Assembly: GCF_003334765.1 (NCBI RefSeq)
Contig: NZ_QOWT01000002.1
Length of the DNA: 64,000 nucleotides
Strand: one strand, 5' to 3'
From: Escherichia coli
Lineage (GTDB): Bacteria; Pseudomonadota; Gammaproteobacteria; Enterobacterales; Enterobacteriaceae
A model generated the notes under the pieces. It had not been told where the DNA came from. It made no database searches and saw only the letters and a program-made list of their open reading frames with translations. Both the position numbers and the translations under genes were made by a program. Position 1 is the stretch's first letter; the number at the start of each line of letters is the position of its first letter. Shown here piece by piece: positions 18,017 to 31,826 of this stretch.

Positions 18017-18295
18017 TCAGGCCTCGAAGAATTCGCCGTTCTTCGGGGCTTTTTCTTTTGTCAGCATTCTGGCTACTTGCTTAGCCAGTTCCGCCAACTC
18101 CTCGTCTTCAACACCCCATTCAAGAACAGCAAGAAGCATTCCCATTTTGGGGATGAAGCTGTCTTTCCATCGCGAAATTTGCGATTCATTAATCCCTAAC
18201 GCGTCGGCAACCTTTCGCTGACCACGTACAGCAATTCGATTCAGGATGTTGCTTGTAATTGCATTCGCTTTCTTGCGAGTACTTGTAAGTTGCAT
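18017..18295 (-). CDS. CII-like transcriptional activator
   Basis: ...[46 protein letters not shown] resembles lambda CII ...[25 protein letters not shown]. Confidence 0.8.
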
Positions 18296-18704: not shown

Positions 18705-19421
18705 ATGGAAAATAAAAAATCACTGACGACAGAACAGCTCGAAGACGCTAAGCGGCTTAAGGCTTTGTATGAGTCAAAAAAGAAAGAATTGGGAATAACC
18801 CAATACTCAATCGCTGATGAACTGGGTATCACCCAAGGAGCGGTAGGGCATTATCTTAATGGCAGAAACGCGCTAAACGTTGAGGTCGCATCTGGTTTTG
18901 CACGTTTGTTGCAAGTCTCAATTGCTGATTTTAGCCAGTCAATTGCTGCCAAGGTTGCAGAACAGGCAGAAAGCCTTAAGAGCGATGCCAACGTAAGGTA
19001 TGCAGGGGAATACAGAGCAGGAAAGAGGTATCCGGTGTTAAGCAGTATCCAGGCTGGCTCGTGGTGTGAAGCATGCGAACCATACACCATTAAAGACATA
19101 GATGTTTGGCTTGAGTCTGACGCGCATATTCAAGGTAATGCGTTCTGGCTTAAAGTGGAAGGTGATTCAATGACGGCACCGGTTGGGTTAAGCATTCCAG
19201 AGGGAACATTCGTTCTTTTCGATACCGGAAGGGAGGCGATCAACGGCAGCTTGGTCATAGCAAAACTTTCTGACTCTAACGAAGCAACATTCAAGAAGCT
19301 GATAATCGACGGCGGAAATAAATACCTCAAGGGACTTAACCCTGCATGGCCTCTCGTGCCAATCAATGGAAACTGCAAGATTATAGGCGTTGCAATTGAG
19401 ACAAAACTAAGGCTGGTTTGA
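18705..19421 (+). CDS. cI: CI repressor (HTH plus S24 LexA-like autopeptidase domain)
   Basis: 238 aa; N-terminal HTH (QYSIADELGITQGAVGHYLNG), C-terminal ...KVEGDSM...ATFKKL; no SD before ATG, consistent with a leaderless pRM transcript. Confidence 0.85.
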   Translation: MENKKSLTTEQLEDAKRLKALYESKKKELGITQYSIADELGITQGAVGHYLNGRNALNVEVASGFARLLQVSIADFSQSIAAKVAEQAESLKSDANVRYAGEYRAGKRYPVLSSIQAGSWCEACEPYTIKDIDVWLESDAHIQGNAFWLKVEGDSMTAPVGLSIPEGTFVLFDTGREAINGSLVIAKLSDSNEATFKKLIIDGGNKYLKGLNPAWPLVPINGNCKIIGVAIETKLRLV

Positions 19422-19980: not shown

Positions 19981-20028
19981 CTTTAGCCATCAGCAGGACG
20001 CTGGAAGCCAAACGGAACAGATTGGCAG

Positions 20029-20069
20029 GCTCTTTAACATTGATGGGATTGTCCCGCCGAAATGCGGGA
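20029..20069 (+). promoter_or_regulatory. nutL: boxA GCTCTTTAACA (20029..20039) and boxB hairpin TCCCGC-CGAAAT-GCGGGA (20052..20069)
   Basis: rrn/lambda-like boxA followed 12 nt later by 6-bp stem hairpin identical to nutR boxB. Confidence 0.6.
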
Positions 20070-20176
20070 ACCAAAGAGTAGTTGGCTTTGGGGTGACGTG
20101 AAGTGCAGCTGCACGACGGCAACCGGAAGATAAGCACCCGGCGCGTCACCGCCAAAGCCAATCATCGGAGGTCAAC

Positions 20177-20473
20177 ATGATAATCGTTACTTATCTGGCT
20201 GATGATAACACCAGAAATCGCCGCAGAGCACGCAGACAGGCTCAACGTGAACAGGCAATGCAAGAACAGCGACTTGCGCGAAAAATTGCGCTAAAGCTCT
20301 CTGGTTGCGTCAGAGCAGATAAAGCAGCATCACTCGGAAGCCTTCGCTGCAAGAAGGCAGAAGAAGTCGAGCGTAAACAGAACCGTATTTACTACCGCAA
20401 GCCACGCAGTGAAATGGGTGTGACTTGTGTTGGTCGCCAGAAAATGAAATTAGGCAGCAAACCACTTATTTGA
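20177..20473 (+). CDS. N-like transcription antiterminator (arginine-rich motif)
   Basis: 98 aa; N-terminal ARM DDNTRNRRRARRQAQREQ; strong SD GGAGG; first gene after pL/nutL. Confidence 0.65.
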   Translation: MIIVTYLADDNTRNRRRARRQAQREQAMQEQRLARKIALKLSGCVRADKAASLGSLRCKKAEEVERKQNRIYYRKPRSEMGVTCVGRQKMKLGSKPLI

Positions 20474-20481
20474 GGTGAGAT

Positions 20482-20952
20482 ATGACAAAATCATGGAGCG
20501 TACCTTTTCCTGAATCAGAAACTGAACATGATGGAATGCCTGTTTTCTGGAGATTCCAAGCGACAGTTGAAGAAGATGGAATCAAAATATTCGCACTTCA
20601 ATATATAGCTTTTCATCAGACAGAGCATTATGCATGGTTGGTTCCTGCGCATTGGATTGTTGATTTTAAACCAGCACCAAATCAGTGGTTACAGGAATGG
20701 AAACAAAAGAGAAATAGATATGCAATTAAGAAAGTAGCAAAAAATGCAGAAAGATCTTTTGCATTCCCAACGAAGAAACTTGCCATTGAAAGTTTATTGC
20801 GCCGGAAGAAATACCATTTAATGAGAATAAAACAAGATTTGGCTGTTGTATCAACTCTTGTTGATGGGATGAAAAATATTGATACATCAACACCAGATAT
20901 TGAATATAACTTTGGACACAACCAAGAAACAGAAAATTGGGTATTTTATTAG
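20482..20952 (+). CDS. Hypothetical protein, AT-rich, unknown function
   Basis: 156 aa ORF immediately after the N-like gene; no recognisable motif. Confidence 0.5.
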   Translation: MTKSWSVPFPESETEHDGMPVFWRFQATVEEDGIKIFALQYIAFHQTEHYAWLVPAHWIVDFKPAPNQWLQEWKQKRNRYAIKKVAKNAERSFAFPTKKLAIESLLRRKKYHLMRIKQDLAVVSTLVDGMKNIDTSTPDIEYNFGHNQETENWVFY

Positions 20953-21056
20953 TACGAATAAGCACTGTGTATTCATTCCAACGAGTGAATACACGGAGCA
21001 ATGTCGCTCGTAACTAAACAGGAGCCGACTTGTTCTGATTATTGGAAGTCTTCTTT

Positions 21057-21084
21057 GCCCTCCGATGTGAGGGCTTTTTTATAT
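21057..21084 (+). terminator. Rho-independent terminator (GCCCTC-CGATGTG-GAGGGC + T6)
   Basis: GC stem followed by TTTTTT; candidate tL1 overridden by N. Confidence 0.65.
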
Positions 21085-21164
21085 GCATACCAATAACGCT
21101 TCACGAGAGGTGTTTATTCATGAGCGTAAACGCTGATTAATGAACGCAGTTGATAGGATATAAA

Positions 21165-21677
21165 ATGGCATTTATAAAGATTCTTGAATTAATTTCCCTA
21201 AGTGAGATTAATAATGTTGTCAAATATAACCCTATTTCTGGTGAGTTCACATGGCTAAAATCTTATGGAGCAAGAAAGATAGGTGGAACTGCCGGAACAA
21301 TAACAACAAGCGGCTACTTAAGGATTTTCATTAACGGAAGACACTATGCTGCACATAGACTTGCATGGATTATCACTTTCGGTGTTGAGCCTGAAGGTAT
21401 TATCGACCATATAAATGGCATAAAGACAGATAACAGAATTTGCAATCTGAGGCTTGCAACTTACTCACAGAATTCAATGAATAGTAAAATAAATACCCTC
21501 AACAAATCAGGTTGCAAAGGAGTCACATGGAAGAAGGAAAGTAGAAAGTGGGCTGCCTATGGGAAATTAAACGGGAAGAAAAAACATCTAGGGTACTTTA
21601 ATGAATTAGAAGATGCCAAAAAAGCTTACTGCGACTTTGCCAGAAAGCATCACGGCGAATTCTACAGGAGCAAATAA
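21165..21677 (+). CDS. HNH endonuclease with AP2-like DNA-binding domain
   Basis: HINGIKTDNRICNLRLATYSQN HNH motif; C-terminal GVTWKKESRKWAAYGKLNGKKKHLGYFNELEDAKKAY AP2-like; ORF track starts at TTG 21150. Confidence 0.7.
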   Translation: MAFIKILELISLSEINNVVKYNPISGEFTWLKSYGARKIGGTAGTITTSGYLRIFINGRHYAAHRLAWIITFGVEPEGIIDHINGIKTDNRICNLRLATYSQNSMNSKINTLNKSGCKGVTWKKESRKWAAYGKLNGKKKHLGYFNELEDAKKAYCDFARKHHGEFYRSK

Positions 21678-21811
21678 TGAATGAATATATTTTAGCGGGT
21701 AGCGGCGTCATGTCCGCTTTCTACCCGCACGAATCTGAATTATCACGCCGAGTTAAACAATTAATCAGAGCAGCAAAGAAACAACTGGAGGCGTTATGCG
21801 CAATGAAATAG
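21677..21811 (+). CDS. CIII-like small protein, 44 aa (not in ORF track)
   Basis: MNEYILAGSGVMSAFYPHESELSRRVKQLIRAAKKQLEAL resembles lambda CIII MQYAIAGWPVAGCPSESLLERITRKLRDGWKRL. Confidence 0.45.
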   Translation: MNEYILAGSGVMSAFYPHESELSRRVKQLIRAAKKQLEALCAMK

Positions 21812-21948
21812 CCATTAATCACCAGATGCTTCGTGCTGCACAGAACAAAGCAGTAATAGCCAGATTTATTGGTGATTCCAAAATGTGGCTTGAAGCAAAT
21901 AAAGCGATGAAATCAGCTATCAACCTTCCGTGGTATCGCAGGAAATGA
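21796..21948 (+). CDS. Kil-like small protein, 50 aa (not in ORF track)
   Basis: MRNEIAINHQMLRAAQNKAVIARFIGDSKMW...; directly follows cIII-like ORF; motif recalled from lambdoid Kil, unverified. Confidence 0.35.
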   Translation: MRNEIAINHQMLRAAQNKAVIARFIGDSKMWLEANKAMKSAINLPWYRRK

Positions 21949-22029
21949 GTTTTACAGATAACTGGTCAGACGAAGAATTCATTCGTCAGATGAACAAAAT
22001 GCTCAATCAGCACAAAGAACAGGAGAAAG

Positions 22030-22341
22030 ATGATGATTCTGACTCTGAATGATAAGCGTGAAATATCGCAAATAATCGCAAGTTTTACTGATGAAGATTA
22101 CGAGCGAATCAACAGTGAAGTTGATCGCCTCTGCAAACGTTGCGACCCAATAAGCGAAATGCTTCGCTCATATAAACCAGATGAACACACTAAGGACGCT
22201 ATCGACTGGCTGGAAGATGATGACTGTAACTATCAGGAAAAAGCCGCTGAATGGTTCTGGGATGCAATAACCGAAAGAGTTAAGGCTGAATATGCCTTCG
22301 CAATATTTAAACGCAGACACATTTTTGGAGAAGCTGCATGA
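22030..22341 (+). CDS. Hypothetical acidic protein upstream of recT
   Basis: 103 aa ORF with stop overlapping recT start. Confidence 0.5.
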   Translation: MMILTLNDKREISQIIASFTDEDYERINSEVDRLCKRCDPISEMLRSYKPDEHTKDAIDWLEDDDCNYQEKAAEWFWDAITERVKAEYAFAIFKRRHIFGEAA

Positions 22342-23240
22342 GCAATATCGTTGAATTCGTTAAACAGCAAGAGCAGTTATTCTGCGGAGCATTGACTGAA
22401 CAGACGGTGACATGGGCTAAGGAAAGCCAGTTTGCAATTCAGTATTTCCAGAAAAACGATTACCTGGCTAAAACAGCACTGGCAAATCCAACCAGCGCAC
22501 AGAACGCCATCATCAATGTTGCGGCGATCGGCATCACCTTAAACCCGGCCAGCAAACTGGCTTATCTGGTTCCTCGCGACGGCATGGTGTGCCTTGATAT
22601 CAGTTACATGGGATTACTTCACCTTGCACAGTCGACAGGATCAATTAAGTGGGGGCAATGCAAACTGGTGTACTCAAACGACACCTATGAATCAAACGGC
22701 CTTGATTCAGCACCAACCCACAAATACAACGCATTTGGTAAGCGAGGCTCTATTGTTGGTGGTTATTGTACGGTTAAAACAGCAGATGGTGACTACCTCA
22801 CTGAAGAAATGAGTCTGGCAGAAATTAAAGCTGTGGAAGCAACGAGCAAGGCAAAGAATGGACCGTGGAAGACATTCTGGGAAGAGATGGCGCGTAAAAC
22901 AATAGTTAAACGCGCCAGCAAATACTGGCCTAAAGCCCAGCGACTGGATAATGCCATTCACCTGCTTAACGAAGATGAAGGTATGCATCAGGAACCAGTT
23001 ATGCCGCACAAATCAGAGGAAGATATCCGCGAAGATGAACGGAAACGCCAGCAGGAAATTATGGAAAAAGCACAACTTCTTTGTGATGAAATGGCTCAGG
23101 CAGAAAACATGGATGATTTGAAGCGATATTTTGCAGAAGCATATCGCCTGACATCTGGAATGAAATTGCAGCAGAACGTACAAGCCATTTACATAGAATG
23201 CAAAGCGAAACTGGAGGTTGCCAGTGAGCAAACTGTATGA
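22338..23240 (+). CDS. recT: RecT-family single-strand annealing recombinase
   Basis: ...KNGPWKTFWEEMARKTIVKRASKYWP resembles E. coli RecT ...NNGPWVTHWEEMAKKTAIRRLFKYLP. Confidence 0.8.
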   Translation: MSNIVEFVKQQEQLFCGALTEQTVTWAKESQFAIQYFQKNDYLAKTALANPTSAQNAIINVAAIGITLNPASKLAYLVPRDGMVCLDISYMGLLHLAQSTGSIKWGQCKLVYSNDTYESNGLDSAPTHKYNAFGKRGSIVGGYCTVKTADGDYLTEEMSLAEIKAVEATSKAKNGPWKTFWEEMARKTIVKRASKYWPKAQRLDNAIHLLNEDEGMHQEPVMPHKSEEDIREDERKRQQEIMEKAQLLCDEMAQAENMDDLKRYFAEAYRLTSGMKLQQNVQAIYIECKAKLEVASEQTV

Positions 23241-23706
23241 AATTGCCAATGAATACGCAAAATTGATGGATTCAGATTTAGAACCAGAGATGATTGCTGA
23301 CACAATAGAAGGCATGGAAGGAGAATTTACCGATAAAATAGAGCAACTTCTTTCCGTCATTAAAAATGAATCTGGTTATGCTGAACGCCTCAAGGAAGAG
23401 GCAAAGTCACTGAATGAGCGAGCCGCAGTAATTCAAAATAAGATTGACAGCATCAAATCATATATAGCGTCATCGCTTGAAATGGTTGGCAAGAAAAATA
23501 TTCGAGCAGGTATTCACCAGGTAACAATCCGCAAACCGTCAGAAACTGTAGAAATCATCGACTCAAGCGCCCTTCCTCCTGAATACCTTGAGTTTGAAAC
23601 GACAATTAAAGCCGACAAACTGGCAATCAAGCACCAACTAAAAGCAGGAATAAATATTCCCGGTGCTCAACTCAAGGTTGGGAAACCTTCACTTCTTATC
23701 AAATAA
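23218..23706 (+). CDS. Phage protein, coiled-coil N-terminus (Gp157/Mu-Gam-like?), unknown function
   Basis: 162 aa ORF overlapping recT end. Confidence 0.45.
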   Translation: MPVSKLYEIANEYAKLMDSDLEPEMIADTIEGMEGEFTDKIEQLLSVIKNESGYAERLKEEAKSLNERAAVIQNKIDSIKSYIASSLEMVGKKNIRAGIHQVTIRKPSETVEIIDSSALPPEYLEFETTIKADKLAIKHQLKAGINIPGAQLKVGKPSLLIK

Positions 23707-23717
23707 CGGTATCGCCT

Positions 23718-24032
23718 ATGAAAAAGACTCCATGGGAGAAATGGGAAGTCGATTTCTTGCGCGAAGTAGCGGCGACAATGCCAGTTGAAGTTATCGCTGA
23801 AAAACTGGAAAGGACTGAAAAAGCAGTAATGGCAAAAGCAACAAGGATTGGCGCTGACATTGTTAGCCGACTTCGTGGAAGACGATGGACAAGAGCCGAA
23901 GTATCACTTTTCGGTAAGTTCTCCGCAGAAGAAATAGCAATTGCAACCTGCCGATCAATTTATTCAGTAAGAGCTATGCGATACAAGCTAAAAAAACTCG
24001 ATGAAGAAAGAGCAGGCATACGAATAAATTAA
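23718..24032 (+). CDS. Hypothetical phage protein
   Basis: 104 aa ORF in early-left operon. Confidence 0.45.
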
Positions 24033-24922: not shown

Positions 24923-25552
24923 ATGAGCGCTATAACCAAAGAACGTATCAAATTATTCATTAAAAATCCGCTTGATAACGGACTTACTCGTGGCGAACAA
25001 ATGGAACTGGCACGAATTGCACTGGCATCACTGGAACGCGAACAGATTCGCCACGAGCATGCCAAATGGTCTGACTCCACATTTGGCTGCGTTGGCCCCA
25101 TTGGTCCACTGAAACACCTCTCAAAAGAGGCACTGGAAGCCGCAGCCGAACCTGACGATCTCAGCGAGTGGGCTGATATGCAGTTCCTGTTGTGGGATGC
25201 ACAGCGCCGTGCTGGTATCAGTGATGCTGAAATTACCGCTGCTATGGAAAATAAATTGAAGATCAACATGGAGCGCCAGTGGCCTGAGCCAAAAGATGGT
25301 GAGCCTCGCTTGCACATTAAAGAACCCGGCAACTCTCCGGTAACTCCGGATGGTTGGATAAGCTGTAGTGATCGAATGCCGGAAGACACCAAAATGTTAC
25401 TGGCATTTAGTCAAGGTAAAATCGTGGCCGCATATTGGAACTGGGTTATAAATCCAATTGATTACAAAAAATATAGAGCTTTCACGTATTTATCAGGATA
25501 TATCTTGGATGACGTAACTCACTGGATGCCGCTACCAGAGCCTCCACTTTGA
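24923..25552 (+). CDS. Hypothetical phage protein with DUF551-like C-terminus
   Basis: SD AAGGAGAG before ATG 24923; C-terminal ...HWMPLPEPP typical of lambdoid early-region proteins. Confidence 0.5.
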   Translation: MSAITKERIKLFIKNPLDNGLTRGEQMELARIALASLEREQIRHEHAKWSDSTFGCVGPIGPLKHLSKEALEAAAEPDDLSEWADMQFLLWDAQRRAGISDAEITAAMENKLKINMERQWPEPKDGEPRLHIKEPGNSPVTPDGWISCSDRMPEDTKMLLAFSQGKIVAAYWNWVINPIDYKKYRAFTYLSGYILDDVTHWMPLPEPPL

Positions 25553-25647
25553 AAGCGAAGCTTATACATATCTTTTACATCAGCAATCTATTGTTAATCT
25601 CCAATCAATGTTACGTTGTCATCTCACTCATGCTTTGGAGGTAGTGA

Positions 25648-25828
25648 TATGTCTTGTCCAAAATGCGGTTCTGGAAATATTGCAAAAGAAAAAACAATGC
25701 GTGGATGGTCTGGTGATTATGTGTGCTGCGATTGCGGATACAACGACTCTAAAGACGCATTTGGAGAGCGTGGTAAAAACGAGTTTGTTAAAATTAATAA
25801 AGAACGCGAAGGCAACGAAAAAAGCTAA
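25648..25828 (+). CDS. Small zinc-ribbon protein (CPKCG...CCDCG)
   Basis: SD GGAGG before ATG 25648; two CxxC pairs. Confidence 0.5.
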
Positions 25829-25891
25829 TTTATTTATTCATATATGAAAACAATGTAACCAATATTCGAATTGAAGAACTGAAAGAACACC

Positions 25892-25916
25892 AAGCCGCCT
25901 GATGGCGGTTTTTTAT
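25892..25916 (+). terminator. Rho-independent terminator (AGCCGCC-TGAT-GGCGGTT + T-run)
   Basis: GC-rich hairpin followed by TTTTTTAT. Confidence 0.7.
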
Positions 25917-25924
25917 TACCTGAT

Positions 25925-25940
25925 TTGCAGGTTCGATTCC
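25925..25940. repeat. Internal partial argW copy TTGCAGGTTCGATTCC (T-arm segment)
   Basis: 16-nt identity with 5601..5616 of argW, located upstream of torI. Confidence 0.6.
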
Positions 25941-25959
25941 CTATTCGGAGATAGCACTC

Positions 25960-26160
25960 ATGCAACACGAACTACAGCCTGATTCACTGGTTGATTTGAA
26001 ATTCATCATGGCCGATACTGGCTTCGGTAAAACCTTCATCTATGACCGGATTAAGTCCGGCGACCTGCCAAAAGCCAAAGTTATCCACGGGCGAGCAAGA
26101 TGGTTATATCGTGACCATTGTGAATTCAAAAATAAGCTCTTAAGCCGCGCCAATGGGTAA
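25960..26160 (+). CDS. torI: TorI: recombination directionality factor (excisionase) and TorR inhibitor
   Basis: 66 aa MQHELQPDSLVDLKFIMADTGFGKTFIYDRIKSGDLPKAKVIHGRARWLYRDHCEFKNKLLSRANG; recognised. Confidence 0.85.
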   Translation: MQHELQPDSLVDLKFIMADTGFGKTFIYDRIKSGDLPKAKVIHGRARWLYRDHCEFKNKLLSRANG

Positions 26161-26232
26161 AATAGCGGGTAAAATATTTCTCACATCTAAAAAACACCAT
26201 TCCAATCAATCCCCTGCCGCTTCAAGTAGATG

Positions 26233-26248
26233 TCTGCAGGGGACACCA
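26233..26248. repeat. attR core: 16-nt direct repeat CTGCAGGGGACACCAT
   Basis: Identical to argW 3' end at 5616..5631. Confidence 0.7.
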
Positions 26249-26343
26249 TCCTTGTGTTTATCCCTAAAACCACATAAAAACCGTAAATTAAATTCGAACT
26301 AGCAGGCCGAATAAGGCACACCAGGAACTCGTGGTTTTATTCA

Positions 26344-27279
26344 TTATGAAGTGGTTTTTACCTGTTCTCTTAGCCAGATAATAAACGCTTCAATTTTTGG
26401 CCACTGCCTGCCCGGTAATGTGGTGATGTAATAATGCTGATGGCATTTCACCGTCATATCGCCAAACGGCGCGACGAGCTCACCACTGGCAAGCCTTTTT
26501 TGTACCAGGCGTTTTCTTCCCATCGCCACCCCAATATGATTCATCGCGGCAATAACAGCTAAATCAGAACGATCAAAGCCAATTCCAGAAGATGTCGGCA
26601 AATTAACCGCATAATGTTGCGCCCAACTATGCCATTCATCCGTACCGGAGTCGTTGCTCCATGCCTGTCTGTCATGGAGCAACGTACAGTGACACAGGTT
26701 AATTACCGTGTTGGTTAAAGCATGTCTTTGAGCGTATTCCGGGCTACATACTGGCAGGATTTCTTCATCCATCAGAAAGTGATGAGTGAGTTGCGCTGAC
26801 GGCGCATCATCAAAGTAGATCGCCAAATCGATTCCGGCACGTTGCAGATTGACGTTGTCATTACCAGTGAGCACGGTGAGCGAAATAGACGGATACCGGC
26901 GTGTAAAGTCACCTAATGCGGGCACCAACCAGCATTGGGCGATAGAGGGCCGGGAATACAGAGTTAACGTTCCCGATAACTCCTGATTTTTGATATCAAG
27001 AATTTCCTGGTTCAGGGTATCCAGCGACGATTTTAGCGCCCAATAAACACGTTTCCCCTCGTGCGTTAATTCCACTTTGCGATGGGAACGAACAAACAAC
27101 TGAATGCCCAATTCTTCTTCCAGCTGATTGATACGGTGACTTACCGCACTGGGGCTCAGCGACAATTCCTCTGCCGCCAGGGCGAAGGACTGATGCCTGG
27201 CAGCCACTTCAAAAGTATGCATTTTTGATAATTGCCAGCCGTTAAGCAGCCGATTTCTTATTTCACGAAGGGGTTCCAT
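26344..27279 (-). CDS. dsdC: LysR-family activator of D-serine utilisation DsdC
   Basis: Recognised; ORF 26344..27285, start probably MEPLREIRN. Confidence 0.9.
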   Translation of the reverse strand: MEPLREIRNRLLNGWQLSKMHTFEVAARHQSFALAAEELSLSPSAVSHRINQLEEELGIQLFVRSHRKVELTHEGKRVYWALKSSLDTLNQEILDIKNQELSGTLTLYSRPSIAQCWLVPALGDFTRRYPSISLTVLTGNDNVNLQRAGIDLAIYFDDAPSAQLTHHFLMDEEILPVCSPEYAQRHALTNTVINLCHCTLLHDRQAWSNDSGTDEWHSWAQHYAVNLPTSSGIGFDRSDLAVIAAMNHIGVAMGRKRLVQKRLASGELVAPFGDMTVKCHQHYYITTLPGRQWPKIEAFIIWLREQVKTTS

Positions 27280-27496
27280 AATCACCTCATTTTTCGCTTA
27301 AGTGTAAAAAAATAGCGGCAAAATTTCAGCTATGAGATGAGCTAAAGTAAACCATATCTCAATTCACCTTCATTTTTAGATGTAAATCACTCCATTGATG
27401 CAATTTACCTCATGTGAAAGGCAAATTTTATCGTTTGTCAGCCTGCGTTGTTTTTTTGTCCAATATCATCAGGTTAATCACAGGGGAAGGTGAGAT

Positions 27497-28834
27497 ATGC
27501 ACTCTCAAATCTGGGTTGTGAGCACGCTGCTTATCAGCATCGTGTTAATTGTACTGACCATCGTGAAGTTCAAATTCCACCCGTTTCTGGCGCTGTTGCT
27601 GGCCAGCTTCTTCGTGGGAACGATGATGGGCATGGGGCCACTGGATATGGTAAATGCTATTGAAAGTGGAATTGGCGGAACGCTGGGGTTCCTCGCAGCG
27701 GTTATCGGCCTTGGCACGATACTGGGAAAAATGATGGAAGTATCCGGGGCCGCAGAAAGAATTGGTCTGACACTTCAACGCTGCCGCTGGCTTTCAGTTG
27801 ATGTCATTATGGTGCTGGTTGGCCTGATTTGTGGCATCACGCTGTTTGTTGAAGTGGGCGTCGTGCTATTGATTCCTCTGGCTTTTTCAATTGCCAAAAA
27901 AACCAATACCTCATTATTAAAGCTTGCCATTCCGCTATGTACCGCATTGATGGCAGTGCACTGCGTGGTTCCTCCACATCCGGCTGCTTTATATGTTGCC
28001 AATAAGCTGGGCGCAGATATCGGTTCGGTGATCGTCTACGGTTTGCTGGTTGGGCTGATGGCATCACTGATCGGTGGCCCACTTTTCCTTAAATTTCTGG
28101 GTCAACGACTGCCCTTTAAACCTGTACCCACAGAGTTTGCAGATCTCAAAGTTCGCGATGAAAAAACACTACCGTCATTAGGCGCAACGTTATTCACCAT
28201 ACTGCTACCCATTGCGCTGATGTTGGTTAAAACGATTGCCGAATTGAATATGGCGCGTGAGAGTGGTTTGTATATCTTGGTTGAGTTTATTGGCAACCCT
28301 ATCACTGCCATGTTTATCGCCGTGTTTGTCGCCTATTATGTGTTGGGTATACGCCAGCATATGAGCATGGGGACGATGCTCACACATACGGAAAATGGCT
28401 TCGGTTCTATTGCTAATATTTTGCTGATTATCGGGGCCGGAGGCGCATTCAACGCCATTTTAAAAAGCAGCAGTCTCGCTGATACGCTGGCAGTTATTCT
28501 CTCCAATATGCATATGCACCCGATTCTTCTGGCCTGGTTAGTGGCTCTTATTCTGCATGCGGCAGTGGGCTCCGCTACCGTGGCAATGATGGGGGCAACG
28601 GCAATTGTTGCACCCATGCTGCCGCTGTATCCCGACATCAGCCCGGAAATTATTGCGATTGCTATCGGTTCAGGTGCAATTGGCTGCACTATCGTTACGG
28701 ACTCGCTTTTCTGGCTAGTGAAGCAATATTGCGGCGCTACGCTCAATGAAACATTTAAATACTATACGACAGCGACATTTATCGCTTCAGTCGTCGCTCT
28801 GGCGGGCACATTCCTGCTGTCATTTATCATCTAA
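27497..28834 (+). CDS. dsdX: D-serine transporter DsdX (GntP family)
   Basis: 445 aa polytopic membrane protein; synteny dsdC-dsdX-dsdA. Confidence 0.9.
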
Positions 28835-28851
28835 GCGCAAAGAGACGTACT

Positions 28852-30180
28852 ATGGAAAACGCTAAAATGAACTCGCTCATCGCCCAGTATCCGTTGGTAA
28901 AGGATCTGGTTGCTCTTAAAGAAACCACCTGGTTTAATCCTGGCACGACCTCATTGGCTGAAGGTTTACCTTATGTTGGCCTGACCGAACAGGATGTTCA
29001 GGACGCCCATGCGCGCTTATCCCGTTTTGCACCCTATCTGGCAAAAGCATTTCCTGAAACTGCTGCCACTGGGGGGATTATTGAATCAGAACTGGTTGCC
29101 ATTCCAGCTATGCAAAAACGGCTGGAAAAAGAATATCAGCAACCGATCAGCGGGCAACTGTTACTGAAAAAAGATAGCCATTTGCCCATTTCCGGCTCCA
29201 TAAAAGCACGCGGCGGGATTTATGAAGTCCTGGCACACGCAGAAAAACTGGCTCTGGAAGCGGGGTTGCTGACGCTTGATGATGACTACAGCAAACTGCT
29301 TTCTCCGGAGTTTAAACAGTTCTTTAGCCAATACAGCATTGCTGTGGGCTCAACCGGAAATCTGGGGTTATCAATCGGCATTATGAGCGCCCGCATTGGC
29401 TTTAAGGTGACAGTTCATATGTCTGCTGATGCCCGGGCATGGAAAAAAGCGAAACTGCGCAGCCATGGCGTTACGGTCGTGGAATATGAGCAAGATTATG
29501 GTGTTGCCGTCGAGGAAGGACGTAAAGCAGCGCAGTCTGACCCGAACTGTTTCTTTATTGATGACGAAAATTCCCGCACGTTGTTCCTTGGGTATTCCGT
29601 CGCTGGCCAGCGTCTTAAAGCGCAATTTGCCCAGCAAGGCCGTATCGTCGATGCTGATAACCCTCTGTTTGTCTATCTGCCGTGTGGTGTTGGCGGTGGT
29701 CCTGGTGGCGTCGCATTCGGGCTTAAACTGGCGTTTGGCGATCATGTTCACTGCTTTTTTGCCGAACCAACGCACTCCCCTTGTATGTTGTTAGGCGTCC
29801 ATACAGGATTACACGATCAGATTTCTGTTCAGGATATTGGTATCGACAACCTTACCGCAGCGGATGGCCTTGCAGTTGGTCGCGCATCAGGCTTTGTCGG
29901 GCGGGCAATGGAGCGTCTGCTGGATGGCTTCTATACCCTTAGCGATCAAACCATGTATGACATGCTTGGCTGGCTGGCGCAGGAAGAAGGTATTCGTCTT
30001 GAACCTTCGGCACTGGCGGGTATGGCCGGACCTCAGCGCGTGTGTGCATCAGTAAGTTACCAACAGATGCACGGTTTCAGCGCAGAACAACTGCGTAATA
30101 CCACTCATCTGGTGTGGGCGACGGGAGGTGGAATGGTGCCGGAAGAAGAGATGAATCAATATCTGGCAAAAGGCCGTTAA
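28852..30180 (+). CDS. dsdA: D-serine dehydratase (ammonia-lyase) DsdA
   Basis: 442 aa; PLP lysine motif SGSIKARGG; recognised. Confidence 0.95.
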
Positions 30181-30287
30181 TAACGTTTCAACGCAGCATC
30201 GCAATCCTTTCCCTGGGTGAGCGATGCTGCCGATGGCGCAGACTTAAGATCCCCGGTCTTACCCGCTATAACCCCCTCCTTTTATCA

Positions 30288-31826
30288 TCACCCAACGCCT
30301 TTCGCTGTAAACGGCGGTTTCGCAAACCAAACCAAAACCGTAAGTAAGATAAAAGCAATAGCCGCCATACGGAAAATCTCATTTGCAGAAATAGAAAGTG
30401 ACTGCTGGGTTATTTCATTATTAATTTCATTAAGAACTCCTGAAAGCGAACCATAATATTTATCCATAATTTGTGACGATGAATTAAACACGGGGTTAAA
30501 TTGATCGATGGTTGCTGTCAACTGACTATGGTGTAACGATTCGCGTCGTCCCCACAGCGTCATTGTCAACGACGTACCAACTGATCCTGACAAGGTACGA
30601 AAAAAATTACTCATACTCGAGGCATTGGCAAATTTATTATCTGGCAAGCCTGAAAACGAAATCGTTGTTAAGGGTAAAAAGAAACAGGCAACGGCGAATC
30701 CCTGAAAAAACTGCGGCAAAATGATGCCTGTAAAATCAATCGTTGGCATAAATGTCACAGAACGCCAGTAATAGCAAACCGCATACATCAAAAAACTAAA
30801 TGTCACTAACAACCGCATGTCTATTTTGTTGCCATAACGTCCTATCAAAGGTGAAATTAATAGTGGCATGATGCCGATGGGCGCATAAGCAAGTCCGGCC
30901 CATATCGCATTATACCCCATCGTTTCCTGGAGTAACTGCGGCATAAGGACGATCGCTCCAGAGTAAAATAAATACGCGCATGTGATACTCACAATACCAA
31001 TGGTGAAGTTACGGGACTTAAACAAACTGAGATCAAGAATCGGGTTCTCTGAGGTCGACTCCCAAATGACTAAAGAGATCAGAGAAATAACTGATACTAC
31101 TGTTAATATTATTATTGTACTCGAGTTGAACCAATCCAGATCGCGCCCTTTATCAAGCATAATTTGCAAGCCACCAACACCGAGCACTAACAGGGTCAGT
31201 CCTGGTAGATTCATTTTGACCGGTGAAGTCTCAGTTTCTCTTCCTTTAAGTAAGGTTAAGCATAATGTCAGGACGATAATCCCCATAGGGACATTGATTA
31301 AAAATATCCAACCCCAGCTAAAGTTATCACAAATATAACCGCCCAATATCGGCCCACATATCGGAGCGATAATCACGGTCATTGACCATAATGCCAGAGC
31401 AAATGTTCTTTTTTCTGGCGGATAATTCCTTAATAATAAACTCTGTGACAGTGGAATTAACGGCCCCGCCATTAACCCCTGAACGACTCTAAAAAATATC
31501 AGCACATCAAGATTGGTCGATAGGCTACACATTAATGAAGACAGCGAAAAAAAAGTGACTGAAAGTAAAAATAATCTTAATTCGCCTATTCTTTGTGCCA
31601 ACCTGCCAGTAACAGGGATCGCAATGGCATTTGCTACACCAAACGAGGTGATAACCCAGGTGCCTTCGTCTGTTGATGCTCCCAGAAAGCCAGATATTGT
31701 CGGTATTGCGACGTTAGAAATAGTGGAATCCAACATTTGCATAAATGTCGCTAATGACAATGCAATAGTGACGCACCATAACGTCCCACCGGTTAATGGT
31801 GCCGGAGTTGATTTAGTGATTGCCAT
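30288..31826 (-). CDS. emrY: MFS multidrug efflux pump EmrY
   Basis: 512 aa, 14-TM MFS; start overlaps emrK stop. Confidence 0.9.
   Translation of the reverse strand: MAITKSTPAPLTGGTLWCVTIALSLATFMQMLDSTISNVAIPTISGFLGASTDEGTWVITSFGVANAIAIPVTGRLAQRIGELRLFLLSVTFFSLSSLMCSLSTNLDVLIFFRVVQGLMAGPLIPLSQSLLLRNYPPEKRTFALALWSMTVIIAPICGPILGGYICDNFSWGWIFLINVPMGIIVLTLCLTLLKGRETETSPVKMNLPGLTLLVLGVGGLQIMLDKGRDLDWFNSSTIIILTVVSVISLISLVIWESTSENPILDLSLFKSRNFTIGIVSITCAYLFYSGAIVLMPQLLQETMGYNAIWAGLAYAPIGIMPLLISPLIGRYGNKIDMRLLVTFSFLMYAVCYYWRSVTFMPTIDFTGIILPQFFQGFAVACFFLPLTTISFSGLPDNKFANASSMSNFFRTLSGSVGTSLTMTLWGRRESLHHSQLTATIDQFNPVFNSSSQIMDKYYGSLSGVLNEINNEITQQSLSISANEIFRMAAIAFILLTVLVWFAKPPFTAKGVG

Follow-up and report, generated by a model that had tools for sequence, protein, structure and literature searches.

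Overlapping small genes of the cIII–kil–recT interval in an HK97/HK022-type prophage of Escherichia coli

In the window examined here, a stretch of 64,000 nt of E. coli DNA, three tightly packed ORFs between nt 21677 and 22052 had been proposed in a sequence-only reading to include cIII-like and Kil-like genes. All three are present on the + strand, at nt 21677–21811, 21796–21948 and 21945–22052 (44, 50 and 35 aa; hereafter ORF1, ORF2 and ORF3), with overlaps of 16 nt between ORF1 and ORF2 and of 4 nt (ATGA) between ORF2 and ORF3. ORF3 in turn overlaps a fourth frame, ORF4 (nt 22030–22341), by 23 nt. Frames of 35–50 aa commonly arise by chance and, as 145 ATG-started ORFs of at least 35 aa can be counted on the + strand of the window, length alone is no evidence of coding. 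The possibility that all three are chance open frames without coding function is nevertheless vanishingly small because of their homology: ORF1 and ORF2 have highly significant matches to Pfam (PF08134, 8e-26; PF06301, 2.1e-20) and PHROG families, are identical (ORF1 from residue 6 on) to annotated phage genes and lie in DNA with 99.7% identity to the HK97 cIII-kil segment, while ORF3 is conserved across many contexts. For ORF1 and ORF2, chance is refuted on sequence grounds.

ORF1 (MNEYILAGSGVMSAFYPHESELSRRVKQLIRAAKKQLEALCAMK) is a CIII protein of the HK022/HK97 class and a predicted FtsH-inhibitory lysogeny factor. An HMM comparison with the CIII and Kil families had been suggested together with the cIII-like label, and it returned both families. 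In the PF08134 match, residues 6–38 of ORF1 align with positions 5–37 of the 37-position model (i-Evalue 8e-26), and phrog_550 matches at 2.3e-10. The label therefore stands for CIII as such but not for the lambda class: PF02061 (Lambda_CIII) gave an E-value of only 0.087, and the HK022 class is preferred. Similarly, the claimed likeness to the conserved helix of lambda CIII is found as a family-level pattern (ES-L--R---L---K---L), with E19, S20, L22, R24, L29, K34 and L40 invariant among ORF1, lambda and P22 CIII, but not as a significant pairwise match. BLASTP returned no alignment of ORF1 with lambda CIII at E <= 100, and a global alignment of the two is 29% identical, so that functional transfer depends on the literature of the HK022 class. 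The identical CIII proteins of HK022, HK97 and H-19B make up a recognised class (Kobiler et al., PMC1838920); CIII is a competitive inhibitor of FtsH, and residues 14–37 of the lambda protein are essential and sufficient (PMC1838920). The counterpart of this segment, the central amphipathic-helix region, is intact in ORF1, which is 100% identical to HK97 CIII over residues 6–44 and identical to RefSeq WP_001008126.1. The gene also lies where cIII is placed in such phages, in the pL operon on the 3' side of N, with its end overlapping the kil start. By homology, its product would form an amphipathic helix, and competitive inhibition of the FtsH protease by this helix would stabilise CII and favour lysogeny.

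The 5' end of this cIII gene is unusual. Its N-terminus reads MNEYI in place of the MMHFQ of the HK97 type, and the whole 5' UTR is replaced together with these five residues. Immediately upstream is an ORF of 175 aa on the + strand (nt 21150–21677) that specifies an HNH homing endonuclease (phrog_99 at 1e-68; also a homing endonuclease by PADLOC) and, according to alignment with HK97, Kapi1 and Ec5283, belongs to a cassette of ~579 nt (about nt 21116–21694). The cassette stands in place of 49 nt of HK97-type sequence that include the Shine-Dalgarno (SD) sequence, the start codon and the first 6 codons of cIII; the five new N-terminal residues result from this exchange of the original ribosome-binding site and start. 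The TAA stop codon of the HNH gene overlaps the cIII ATG (TAATG), and its 3' end supplies a new SD sequence, AGGAG, 6 nt before the ATG. The HNH gene with its cIII junction is rare: at least 80% of nt 20950–21720 of the window is covered by 8 of 5426 E. coli genomes, and 2 further genomes of the same set have a truncated copy. No phage record covers the cassette region.

With a non-native 5' end and a new SD sequence, the expression level or activity of cIII could differ. It might even be argued that the cassette, in destroying the native initiation region, crippled the gene, and that the 44-aa ORF, a fusion in frame only by accident, is either weakly expressed or without activity. The extent of the exchange would agree with this, as would the PGAP name of the MNEYI variant, which is 'hypothetical protein' only. 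Translation of lambda cIII reportedly relies on mRNA structure around its start, in work attributed to Altuvia et al. The N-terminal residues of CIII, the role of which is unknown, have been noted as conserved (PMC1838920). Such a loss of function is nonetheless unlikely, given that the new ATG has a canonical AGGAG at 6 nt and is coupled to the HNH ORF through TAATG, that an L-A-G-S-G stretch and the complete helix region are intact, with the altered residues outside the part that matches the essential lambda segment, and that the HNH-cIII junction is at least 99% identical in several unrelated E. coli strains. The predicted RNA fold around the start is unremarkable (z = -0.77), with no occlusion of the start by strong local structure and no sign of a lambda-like structural switch.

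ORF2 is Kil, a predicted inhibitor of the FtsZ ring and of cell division. Its recognition from an ARFIGDSKM segment proved correct, as the protein is 100% identical to the Kil proteins of HK97, Kapi1 and CUS-3, and to RefSeq WP_001243355.1. Residues 9–39 match the entire PF06301 model (Lambda_Kil, 1–31 of 31) at 2.1e-20, and the phrog_2055 match (1.2e-35) extends over the full length. Compared with lambda Kil, 17 of 30 residues (57%) are identical over a core that includes FIGD-KM, and the alignment of FIGDSKM with lambda FIGDEKM suggests, from sequence alone, a helix-turn-helix core with a G-D turn (G19-D20 in lambda). This core and turn are essential in Kil, and its inhibition of FtsZ is ZipA-dependent (PMC3961180, PMC11762379). 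Nearly all lambda Kil homologues carry a C-terminal RSK/RSSK motif (PMC11762379); the C-terminus of ORF2 (LPWYRRK) is basic but differs from it, and the HK97-type subgroup represented by phrog_2055 may differ in this respect. By homology, ORF2 would be a helix-turn-helix peptide that disrupts the FtsZ ring in a ZipA-dependent manner and so transiently blocks division of the host.

Together with the sequence identities and family matches, the surroundings of the two genes make it very probable that the cIII-kil interval belongs to the early-left (pL) operon of a lambdoid prophage in the E. coli chromosome. The prophage is of the HK97/HK022 type and adjoins torI/dsdC. Upstream of cIII are cII, cI, N (nt 20177–20473) and a gp45-like gene, and the overall order is cII(-), cI, N, terminator, (HNH), cIII, kil, ORF3, ORF4, RecT, Gp157. 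This order fits a lambdoid pL operon, which bears out the original proposal, including its statement that cIII and then kil precede the recombination genes as in lambda; the order matches that of P22 as well. RecT is a single-strand annealing protein of 300 aa (nt 22338–23240, + strand; phrog_148 at 3e-91), and homologous loci have been assigned RecT by both PGAP and Pfam. The following gene (nt 23218–23706, + strand) specifies a Sipho_Gp157/Mu-Gam-like protein of 162 aa (phrog_253 at 5e-54), and PF05565 is found in loci homologous to it. As a side observation, the host flank of E. coli EC17CM13 is a 100% match to that of the present prophage, and a different prophage occupies the same site; in that prophage a 56-aa gene of the CIII class replaces cIII and kil.

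A terminator-like hairpin followed by a T-run (nt 21057–21074, + strand; GCCCTCCGATGTGAGGGC + TTTTTTATAT) separates the gp45-like ORF from the HNH gene. It is the counterpart of a putative early-left terminator that is annotated upstream of cIII in HK97, and nt 20950–21115 of the window are 96% identical to HK97 at the homologous place. A promoter scan found sites no more numerous than in shuffled sequences. Neither NCBIfam (no family at E <= 1) nor PADLOC gave a match for ORF1 to ORF4. From these features we infer that transcription from pL would pass the hairpin only with antitermination by N, and would then read through the inserted homing-endonuclease gene into cIII, kil, ORF3, ORF4, recT and gp157. 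The small genes would be translated as a coupled string, linked in turn by TAATG, the 16-nt overlap, ATGA and the 23-nt overlap.

ORF3 is as acidic as had been stated, with a pI of 4.27 and 11 D+E residues against 4 K+R. It is identical to Kapi1_014; the N-terminus (MSFTDNWSDEEFIRQM) is conserved, and the C-terminus is specific to the module. Its 35 aa are counted from the ATG. In the mechanical ORF list the start is a GTG 5 codons earlier, and this 40-aa version was the query in the homologue search. From the start codon to codon 17, ORF3 coincides with a conserved island of 51 nt (nt 21945–21995, + strand) that has mosaic junctions on both sides: similarity to HK542 starts at the ATG and stops at nt 21995, and that to HK97 and CUS-3 stops at nt 21994/5. 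Of 5426 complete E. coli genomes, 1091 carry the island, and the modules that flank it on either side vary. ORF3 is a widespread small gene, and its N-terminal 16–17 residues are a portable unit common to many lambdoid recombination modules. Other gene callers have called the ORF3-type protein (P0001) as hypothetical on at least 1000 contigs. The gene probably specifies a translated, conserved small acidic peptide.

Alternatively, the conserved 51 nt could be a linker at a module boundary, both kept by recombination between lambdoid phages and promoting it, or simply a leader whose translation passes ribosomes on from kil to ORF4, in which case ORF3 would not be a functional protein; cIII and kil would be unaffected. 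The island is near-invariant in DNA as well as in protein, with junctions at the ATG and after codon 17, and the C-termini of HK97-type homologues vary in length and sequence, which indicates weak constraint beyond about residue 17–28. The ORF is uncalled by PGAP and has no Pfam family match, and both the SD sequence (AGGAG) and the start of ORF4 lie inside it. Against this, the frame is open in all homologues examined, behind three different and unrelated upstream genes and always with the ATGA overlap; MSIADTW variants alter the first six codons yet retain WSDEEFIRQM; expansions of an 18-nt repeat are in-frame and preserve the frame; and in more diverged pairs pN is below pS (pN/pS about 0.3–0.45, from tiny underlying counts). 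The Rfam scan of nt 20000–24000 (E <= 1) returned two spurious eukaryotic families only, leaving the island with no known RNA element to explain it. A non-coding or leader role for ORF3 is the less probable explanation, though one that carries appreciable weight, and a translated peptide is preferred.

Arf of P22 offers an analogy to this peptide. Both proteins contain SDEEFI, written with different codons, which also speaks against a purely DNA-level role for the island. Arf, like ORF3, is a small acidic ORF that overlaps the kil stop codon and precedes an annealing gene (47 aa and pI 4.05, compared with 35 aa and pI 4.27), but the positional match is partial as ORF4 sits between ORF3 and recT. 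Membership of the Arf family was rejected after profile tests, and Arf is retained only as an analogy of position and motif: none of 16 ORF3-family members matched the Pfam Arf model (PF17585) at E <= 0.1, phrog_2445 (Arf) matched ORF3 at E-values of 0.04–0.07, and hhalign gave a probability of only 15% (E 0.0017) over 17 columns. Membership would imply stimulation of Erf-dependent recombination; the molecular function of Arf is itself unknown (PMC12315714). By analogy, ORF3 would most likely be an accessory of the recombination module.

ORF4 (+ strand) is an acidic, all-helical protein of 103 aa, or 102 aa if it starts at nt 22033 as in Kapi1 and PGAP. On the basis of its predicted fold, it is a candidate Gam-fold protein at the position of lambda gam. 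Profile comparison by hhalign did not detect similarity to Gam or GamL, with a probability of 3% and a local match only for lambda Gam (DDDCNYQEKAAEWF / DDDVEFQERMAEHI) and of 5.5% for phi80 GamL, and a PDB sequence-profile search with the ORF4 alignment returned chance-level matches only. A more speculative proposal, which we regard as rather improbable in its entirety, combines the two proteins: the 17-codon N-terminus of ORF3 would be a portable, Arf-like recombination-accessory module, which may be swapped as a unit among Erf-, RecT- and RecE-type modules and is present in about 20% of E. coli genomes, and ORF4 would be an unrecognised Gam-fold inhibitor of RecBCD. If so, an unnoticed resemblance to lambda would underlie the layout of HK140/Kapi1-type modules (cIII, kil, arf-like, gam-like, annealing protein).

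The description of the small ORFs as unannotated holds only for the first-stage ORF track. Public records annotate ORF1 and ORF2, with the RefSeq names 'protease FtsH-inhibitory lysogeny factor CIII' and 'host cell division inhibitory peptide Kil', and Kapi1 annotates ORF3 as a hypothetical protein. In HK97/HK022-type prophages cIII and kil belong to the textbook set of early-left genes, and the present alleles are already in RefSeq/GenBank. Cutoffs on short ORFs conceal known regulators, and PGAP names the MNEYI variant of CIII inconsistently and never calls the 35-aa ORF. The cIII-kil-recombinase junction includes two under-studied pieces, the N-terminal island of ORF3 and the candidate Gam-fold protein, which are relevant to the assembly of lambdoid recombination modules and to their protection from RecBCD.

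Among known phages, HK97/HK022 (AF069529: Gp44 CIII, Gp43 Kil, Gp42.1) is one of the closest. Nucleotides 21695–21994 of the window are 99.7% identical to the cIII-kil-gp42.1 DNA of HK97, which has the same overlaps and in which N, gp45 and a terminator likewise precede the segment. Kil is identical, CIII is identical from residue 6, and ORF3 agrees fully with Gp42.1 over its first 16 residues. The two differ in the 5' end of cIII, replaced here by the HNH cassette, and after codon 17 of ORF3, where a RecT/Gp157 module of the HK140/Kapi1 type is found in place of the Erf/gp40/Abc2 of HK97. The same string of cIII, kil, 35-aa ORF, 102-aa ORF, RecT and Gp157 is carried by vB_EcoP_Kapi1 (MT813197, Kapi1_016 to Kapi1_011), HK140 and mEpX1. 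DNA identity to Kapi1 is 91.7%; its cIII has the native HK97-type start, is annotated with a longer, 61-aa N-terminal extension and has no HNH gene upstream. P22 (c3-kil-arf-erf) also has a small acidic ORF after kil and before the annealing-protein gene, with the N-terminal motif [FW]SDEEFI common to Arf and ORF3; the profile match is not significant. It differs in that its Kil is unrelated in sequence to ORF2 and its annealing protein is Erf rather than RecT; in the present prophage ORF4 lies between ORF3 and the annealing gene. Lambda (cIII-kil-gam-bet) has the same order and overlapping arrangement in its pL operon, a Kil core 57% identical to that of ORF2, and a CIII that belongs to another class and cannot be aligned by BLASTP yet has the helix pattern in common with ORF1. 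Relative to lambda, the present prophage has a RecT-type annealing protein instead of Beta, lacks Exo, and carries the extra 35-aa ORF between kil and the gene at the gam position, which is filled by ORF4, the candidate Gam-fold protein.

By sequence, the window belongs to the E. coli chromosome: nt 25500-31500 are 100% identical to the dsdX-dsdA-emrY-dsdC-torI region, and the prophage adjoins torI/dsdC. In E. coli EC17CM13 (locus L016) the host flank is likewise 100% identical and a different lambdoid prophage occupies the same site, a comparison that shows module turnover at a single integration site. PHROG scans of the prophage place cII (18017-18295, minus strand), a cI-type repressor (18705-19421), N (20177-20473), an HK97 gp45-like gene (20482-20952) and an HNH endonuclease (21150-21677, plus strand) before cIII, kil, ORF3 and ORF4, after which come RecT (22338-23240) and a Sipho_Gp157/Mu-Gam-like gene (23218-23706). 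A terminator-like hairpin (21057-21074) lies at the place of the putative terminator annotated in HK97. The recombination module is of the HK140 type, listed as SAP-4 plus MuGam in a 2025 survey (PMC12315714).

The sequence-only reading had proposed three small ORFs with overlapping starts and stops, and these were found on the plus strand exactly as described: ORF1 (cIII, 21677-21811, 44 aa), ORF2 (kil, 21796-21948, 50 aa) and ORF3 (21945-22052, 35 aa counted from its ATG). The overlap is 16 nt between ORF1 and ORF2 and 4 nt (ATGA) between ORF2 and ORF3; ORF3 shares 23 nt with the next ORF, ORF4 (22030-22341, plus strand). As ORFs of such size are common by chance (145 ATG-started ORFs of at least 35 aa on the plus strand of the window), the case rests on homology, which is decisive for ORF1 and ORF2.

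A megablast search of nt 21100-23300 against phage genomes showed that 21695-21994 is 99.7% identical to the cIII (Gp44)-kil (Gp43)-Gp42.1 segment of HK97. The ORF2 protein is 100% identical to Kil of HK97, Kapi1 and CUS-3, and matches Pfam Lambda_Kil (PF06301, 2.1e-20) and phrog_2055 ('Kil protein for bacterial septation inhibition', 1.2e-35). It shares 57% identity with lambda Kil across 30 residues, and these include FIGD-KM, so that the lambdoid Kil segment pointed out beforehand was correctly recognised. From residue 6 through to the C-terminus, ORF1 and HK97 CIII have the same sequence. It had been likened to lambda CIII, and while its identity as a CIII stands (Pfam cIII PF08134, 8e-26), the class required correction: Pfam Lambda_CIII gave only E 0.087 and BLASTP returned no alignment with lambda CIII, and ORF1 is therefore assigned by sequence to the HK022/HK97 class, one of two described (Kobiler et al. 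2007, PMC1838920). The CIII proteins of HK022, HK97 and H-19B are identical to one another, and in CIII the stretch corresponding to lambda residues 14-37 is both essential and the best conserved (PMC1838920). Global alignment of ORF1 and lambda CIII displays a common helix pattern, ES-L--R---L---K---L. The cIII of CUS-3 (locus L009, 1236-1367) has a lambda/P22-like core (ESLLERITRKLRDGWKR) but an HK022-type C-terminus (...LLCAMK) that overlaps the kil start, so the 3' end of cIII and the 5' end of kil appear to travel as one unit.

In RefSeq E. coli genomes, WP_001243355.1 is named 'host cell division inhibitory peptide Kil' and WP_000972065.1 'protease FtsH-inhibitory lysogeny factor CIII', and WP_001008126.1, the exact ORF1 sequence, is a 'hypothetical protein'. 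Both alleles are already known and publicly annotated, so the finding is an ordinary one; worth recording are the rare HNH-driven replacement of the cIII start, the wide distribution of the ORF3 N-terminal island and the predicted Gam-like fold of ORF4.

When the locus was aligned to HK97, Kapi1 and a further E. coli prophage, and the HK97 match on its flank was taken into account, a replacement event became apparent: about 579 nt (21116-21694) stand in for 49 nt of HK97-type sequence. The cassette carries a free-standing HNH homing endonuclease of 175 aa (phrog_99, 1e-68; also matched by the PADLOC homing-endonuclease model). With those 49 nt, cIII lost its SD, start codon and first codons; the 3' end of the cassette supplies a new AGGAG, 6 nt before a new cIII ATG that overlaps the HNH stop codon (TAATG). 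CIII now begins MNEYILAG... instead of MMHFQLAG..., with the helix region unchanged. RNA structure around the new start showed nothing unusual, and cIII is probably still expressed, coupled to the HNH ORF. The arrangement is rare: at least 80% of 20950-21720 (HNH gene and cIII junction) is covered in 8 of 5426 complete E. coli genomes, two further ones carry a truncated copy, and none of the phage records searched covers the cassette region. In a related prophage, recT and the Gp157 gene are separated by the insertion of another HNH endonuclease gene (PF13392; L015, 3280-3747), and phage Louie has an annotated HNH gene inside its two-piece match to the early-left recombination region. This region may be a recurrent homing-endonuclease target.

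ORF3 is acidic (11 D+E, 4 K+R; pI 4.27) and identical to Kapi1_014 ('hypothetical protein') and to protein cluster P0001, present on at least 1000 contigs. PGAP made no gene call in its interval, and no Pfam or NCBIfam match was found. Homologues have MSFTDNWSDEEFIRQM in common, and beyond it the C-terminus takes at least three forms. In one, ...NKMLNQHKEQEKDDDSDSE, the next genes are ORF4 and then RecT or an 'exoVIII' gene; in another, ...KELIGNEGDIHVTCNH..., Erf comes next (HK97 Gp42.1, CUS-3); in a third, ...GNDTSGFSKD..., an Erf-like gene does. The gene directly upstream also differs, being kil, a 56-aa CIII-class gene (phrog_550, 1e-22) without kil, or an unrelated 54-aa gene, with the ATGA overlap in every case. 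The second arrangement (MQQFAIAG...) was seen in SEN22, 118970_sal4, HK542 and two E. coli contigs (1334-1504 in loci L007, L008 and L010; 1834-2004 in L014/L015). In ungapped comparisons, HK542 similarity starts exactly at the ORF3 ATG and stops at 21995, and that of HK97 and CUS-3 stops at 21994/5, which delimits the conserved unit as a 51-nt island (21945-21995, ORF3 codons 1-17) between mosaic junctions. Among 5426 complete E. coli genomes, 1091 carry it, with three different upstream genes and at least three downstream modules.

The island is nearly invariant as DNA, and the main rival to a protein-coding ORF3 is that the segment serves as a non-protein linker or coupling leader. Set beside this, the frame is open in all homologues; variants beginning MSIADTW... 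have the first six codons altered and retain WSDEEFIRQM; the more diverged pairs give a pN/pS of roughly 0.3-0.45, at very few sites; and EFIRQMK repeats expand in frame. The homologous proteins P0059 and P0060 (HK97-type C-terminus) carry 2-3 tandem EFIRQMK copies at the island end, which is the mosaic junction. An AlphaFold2 model of ORF3 (pLDDT 71) predicts one helix (residues 9-29) and a disordered acidic tail. P22 Arf, also small and acidic, occupies an analogous slot (c3, kil, arf, erf) and, with different codons, specifies SDEEFI at the matching N-terminal position. Statistical tests of this resemblance failed (BLASTP E 0.005 over 12 residues; hhalign Prob 15%; phrog_2445 E 0.04-0.07), and Pfam PF17585 matched none of 16 family members. 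One database source names P0056, a homologue of the HK97 type, 'accessory recombination function protein', which is an annotation and not a test; Arf itself has no known molecular function (PMC12315714). ORF3 is therefore filed as a conserved small ORF without assigned function, with an Arf-like accessory role as the leading, weak hypothesis.

The identities, family memberships, gene order, overlaps and junctions are direct observations; by analogy with lambda, N-antiterminated transcription from pL would pass the hairpin and HNH gene to reach the small genes, which form a coupled string. CIII would act as an oligomeric amphipathic helix and competitive FtsH inhibitor, protecting CII and favouring lysogeny (PMC1838920), and Kil as a helix-turn-helix peptide whose ZipA-dependent disruption of FtsZ rings would cause a transient division block (PMC3961180, PMC11762379).

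Wherever ORF3 has its 35-aa form ORF4 is present too, which is why ORF4 was modelled. It is annotated as hypothetical in all phage records, and its sequence profiles gave no link to lambda Gam or phi80 GamL beyond a local DDDCNYQEKAAEWF / DDDVEFQERMAEHI match. The AlphaFold2 model, built on a 28-sequence alignment from a search that gave 47 hits among 1.84 billion representative proteins, has a pLDDT of 92.9, and the top Foldseek matches include several GamS chains (prob 0.75, TM 0.69) at non-significant E-values. From this predicted structure and its place in the operon, which is that of gam in lambda, ORF4 is a candidate RecBCD inhibitor with the Gam fold, the odds being about even. The lambda-like order noticed at the outset is borne out by the PHROG scans, cIII, kil and then recombination genes being the order in both lambda and P22. 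A Gam-like ORF4, though outside the original finding, would strengthen that correspondence.
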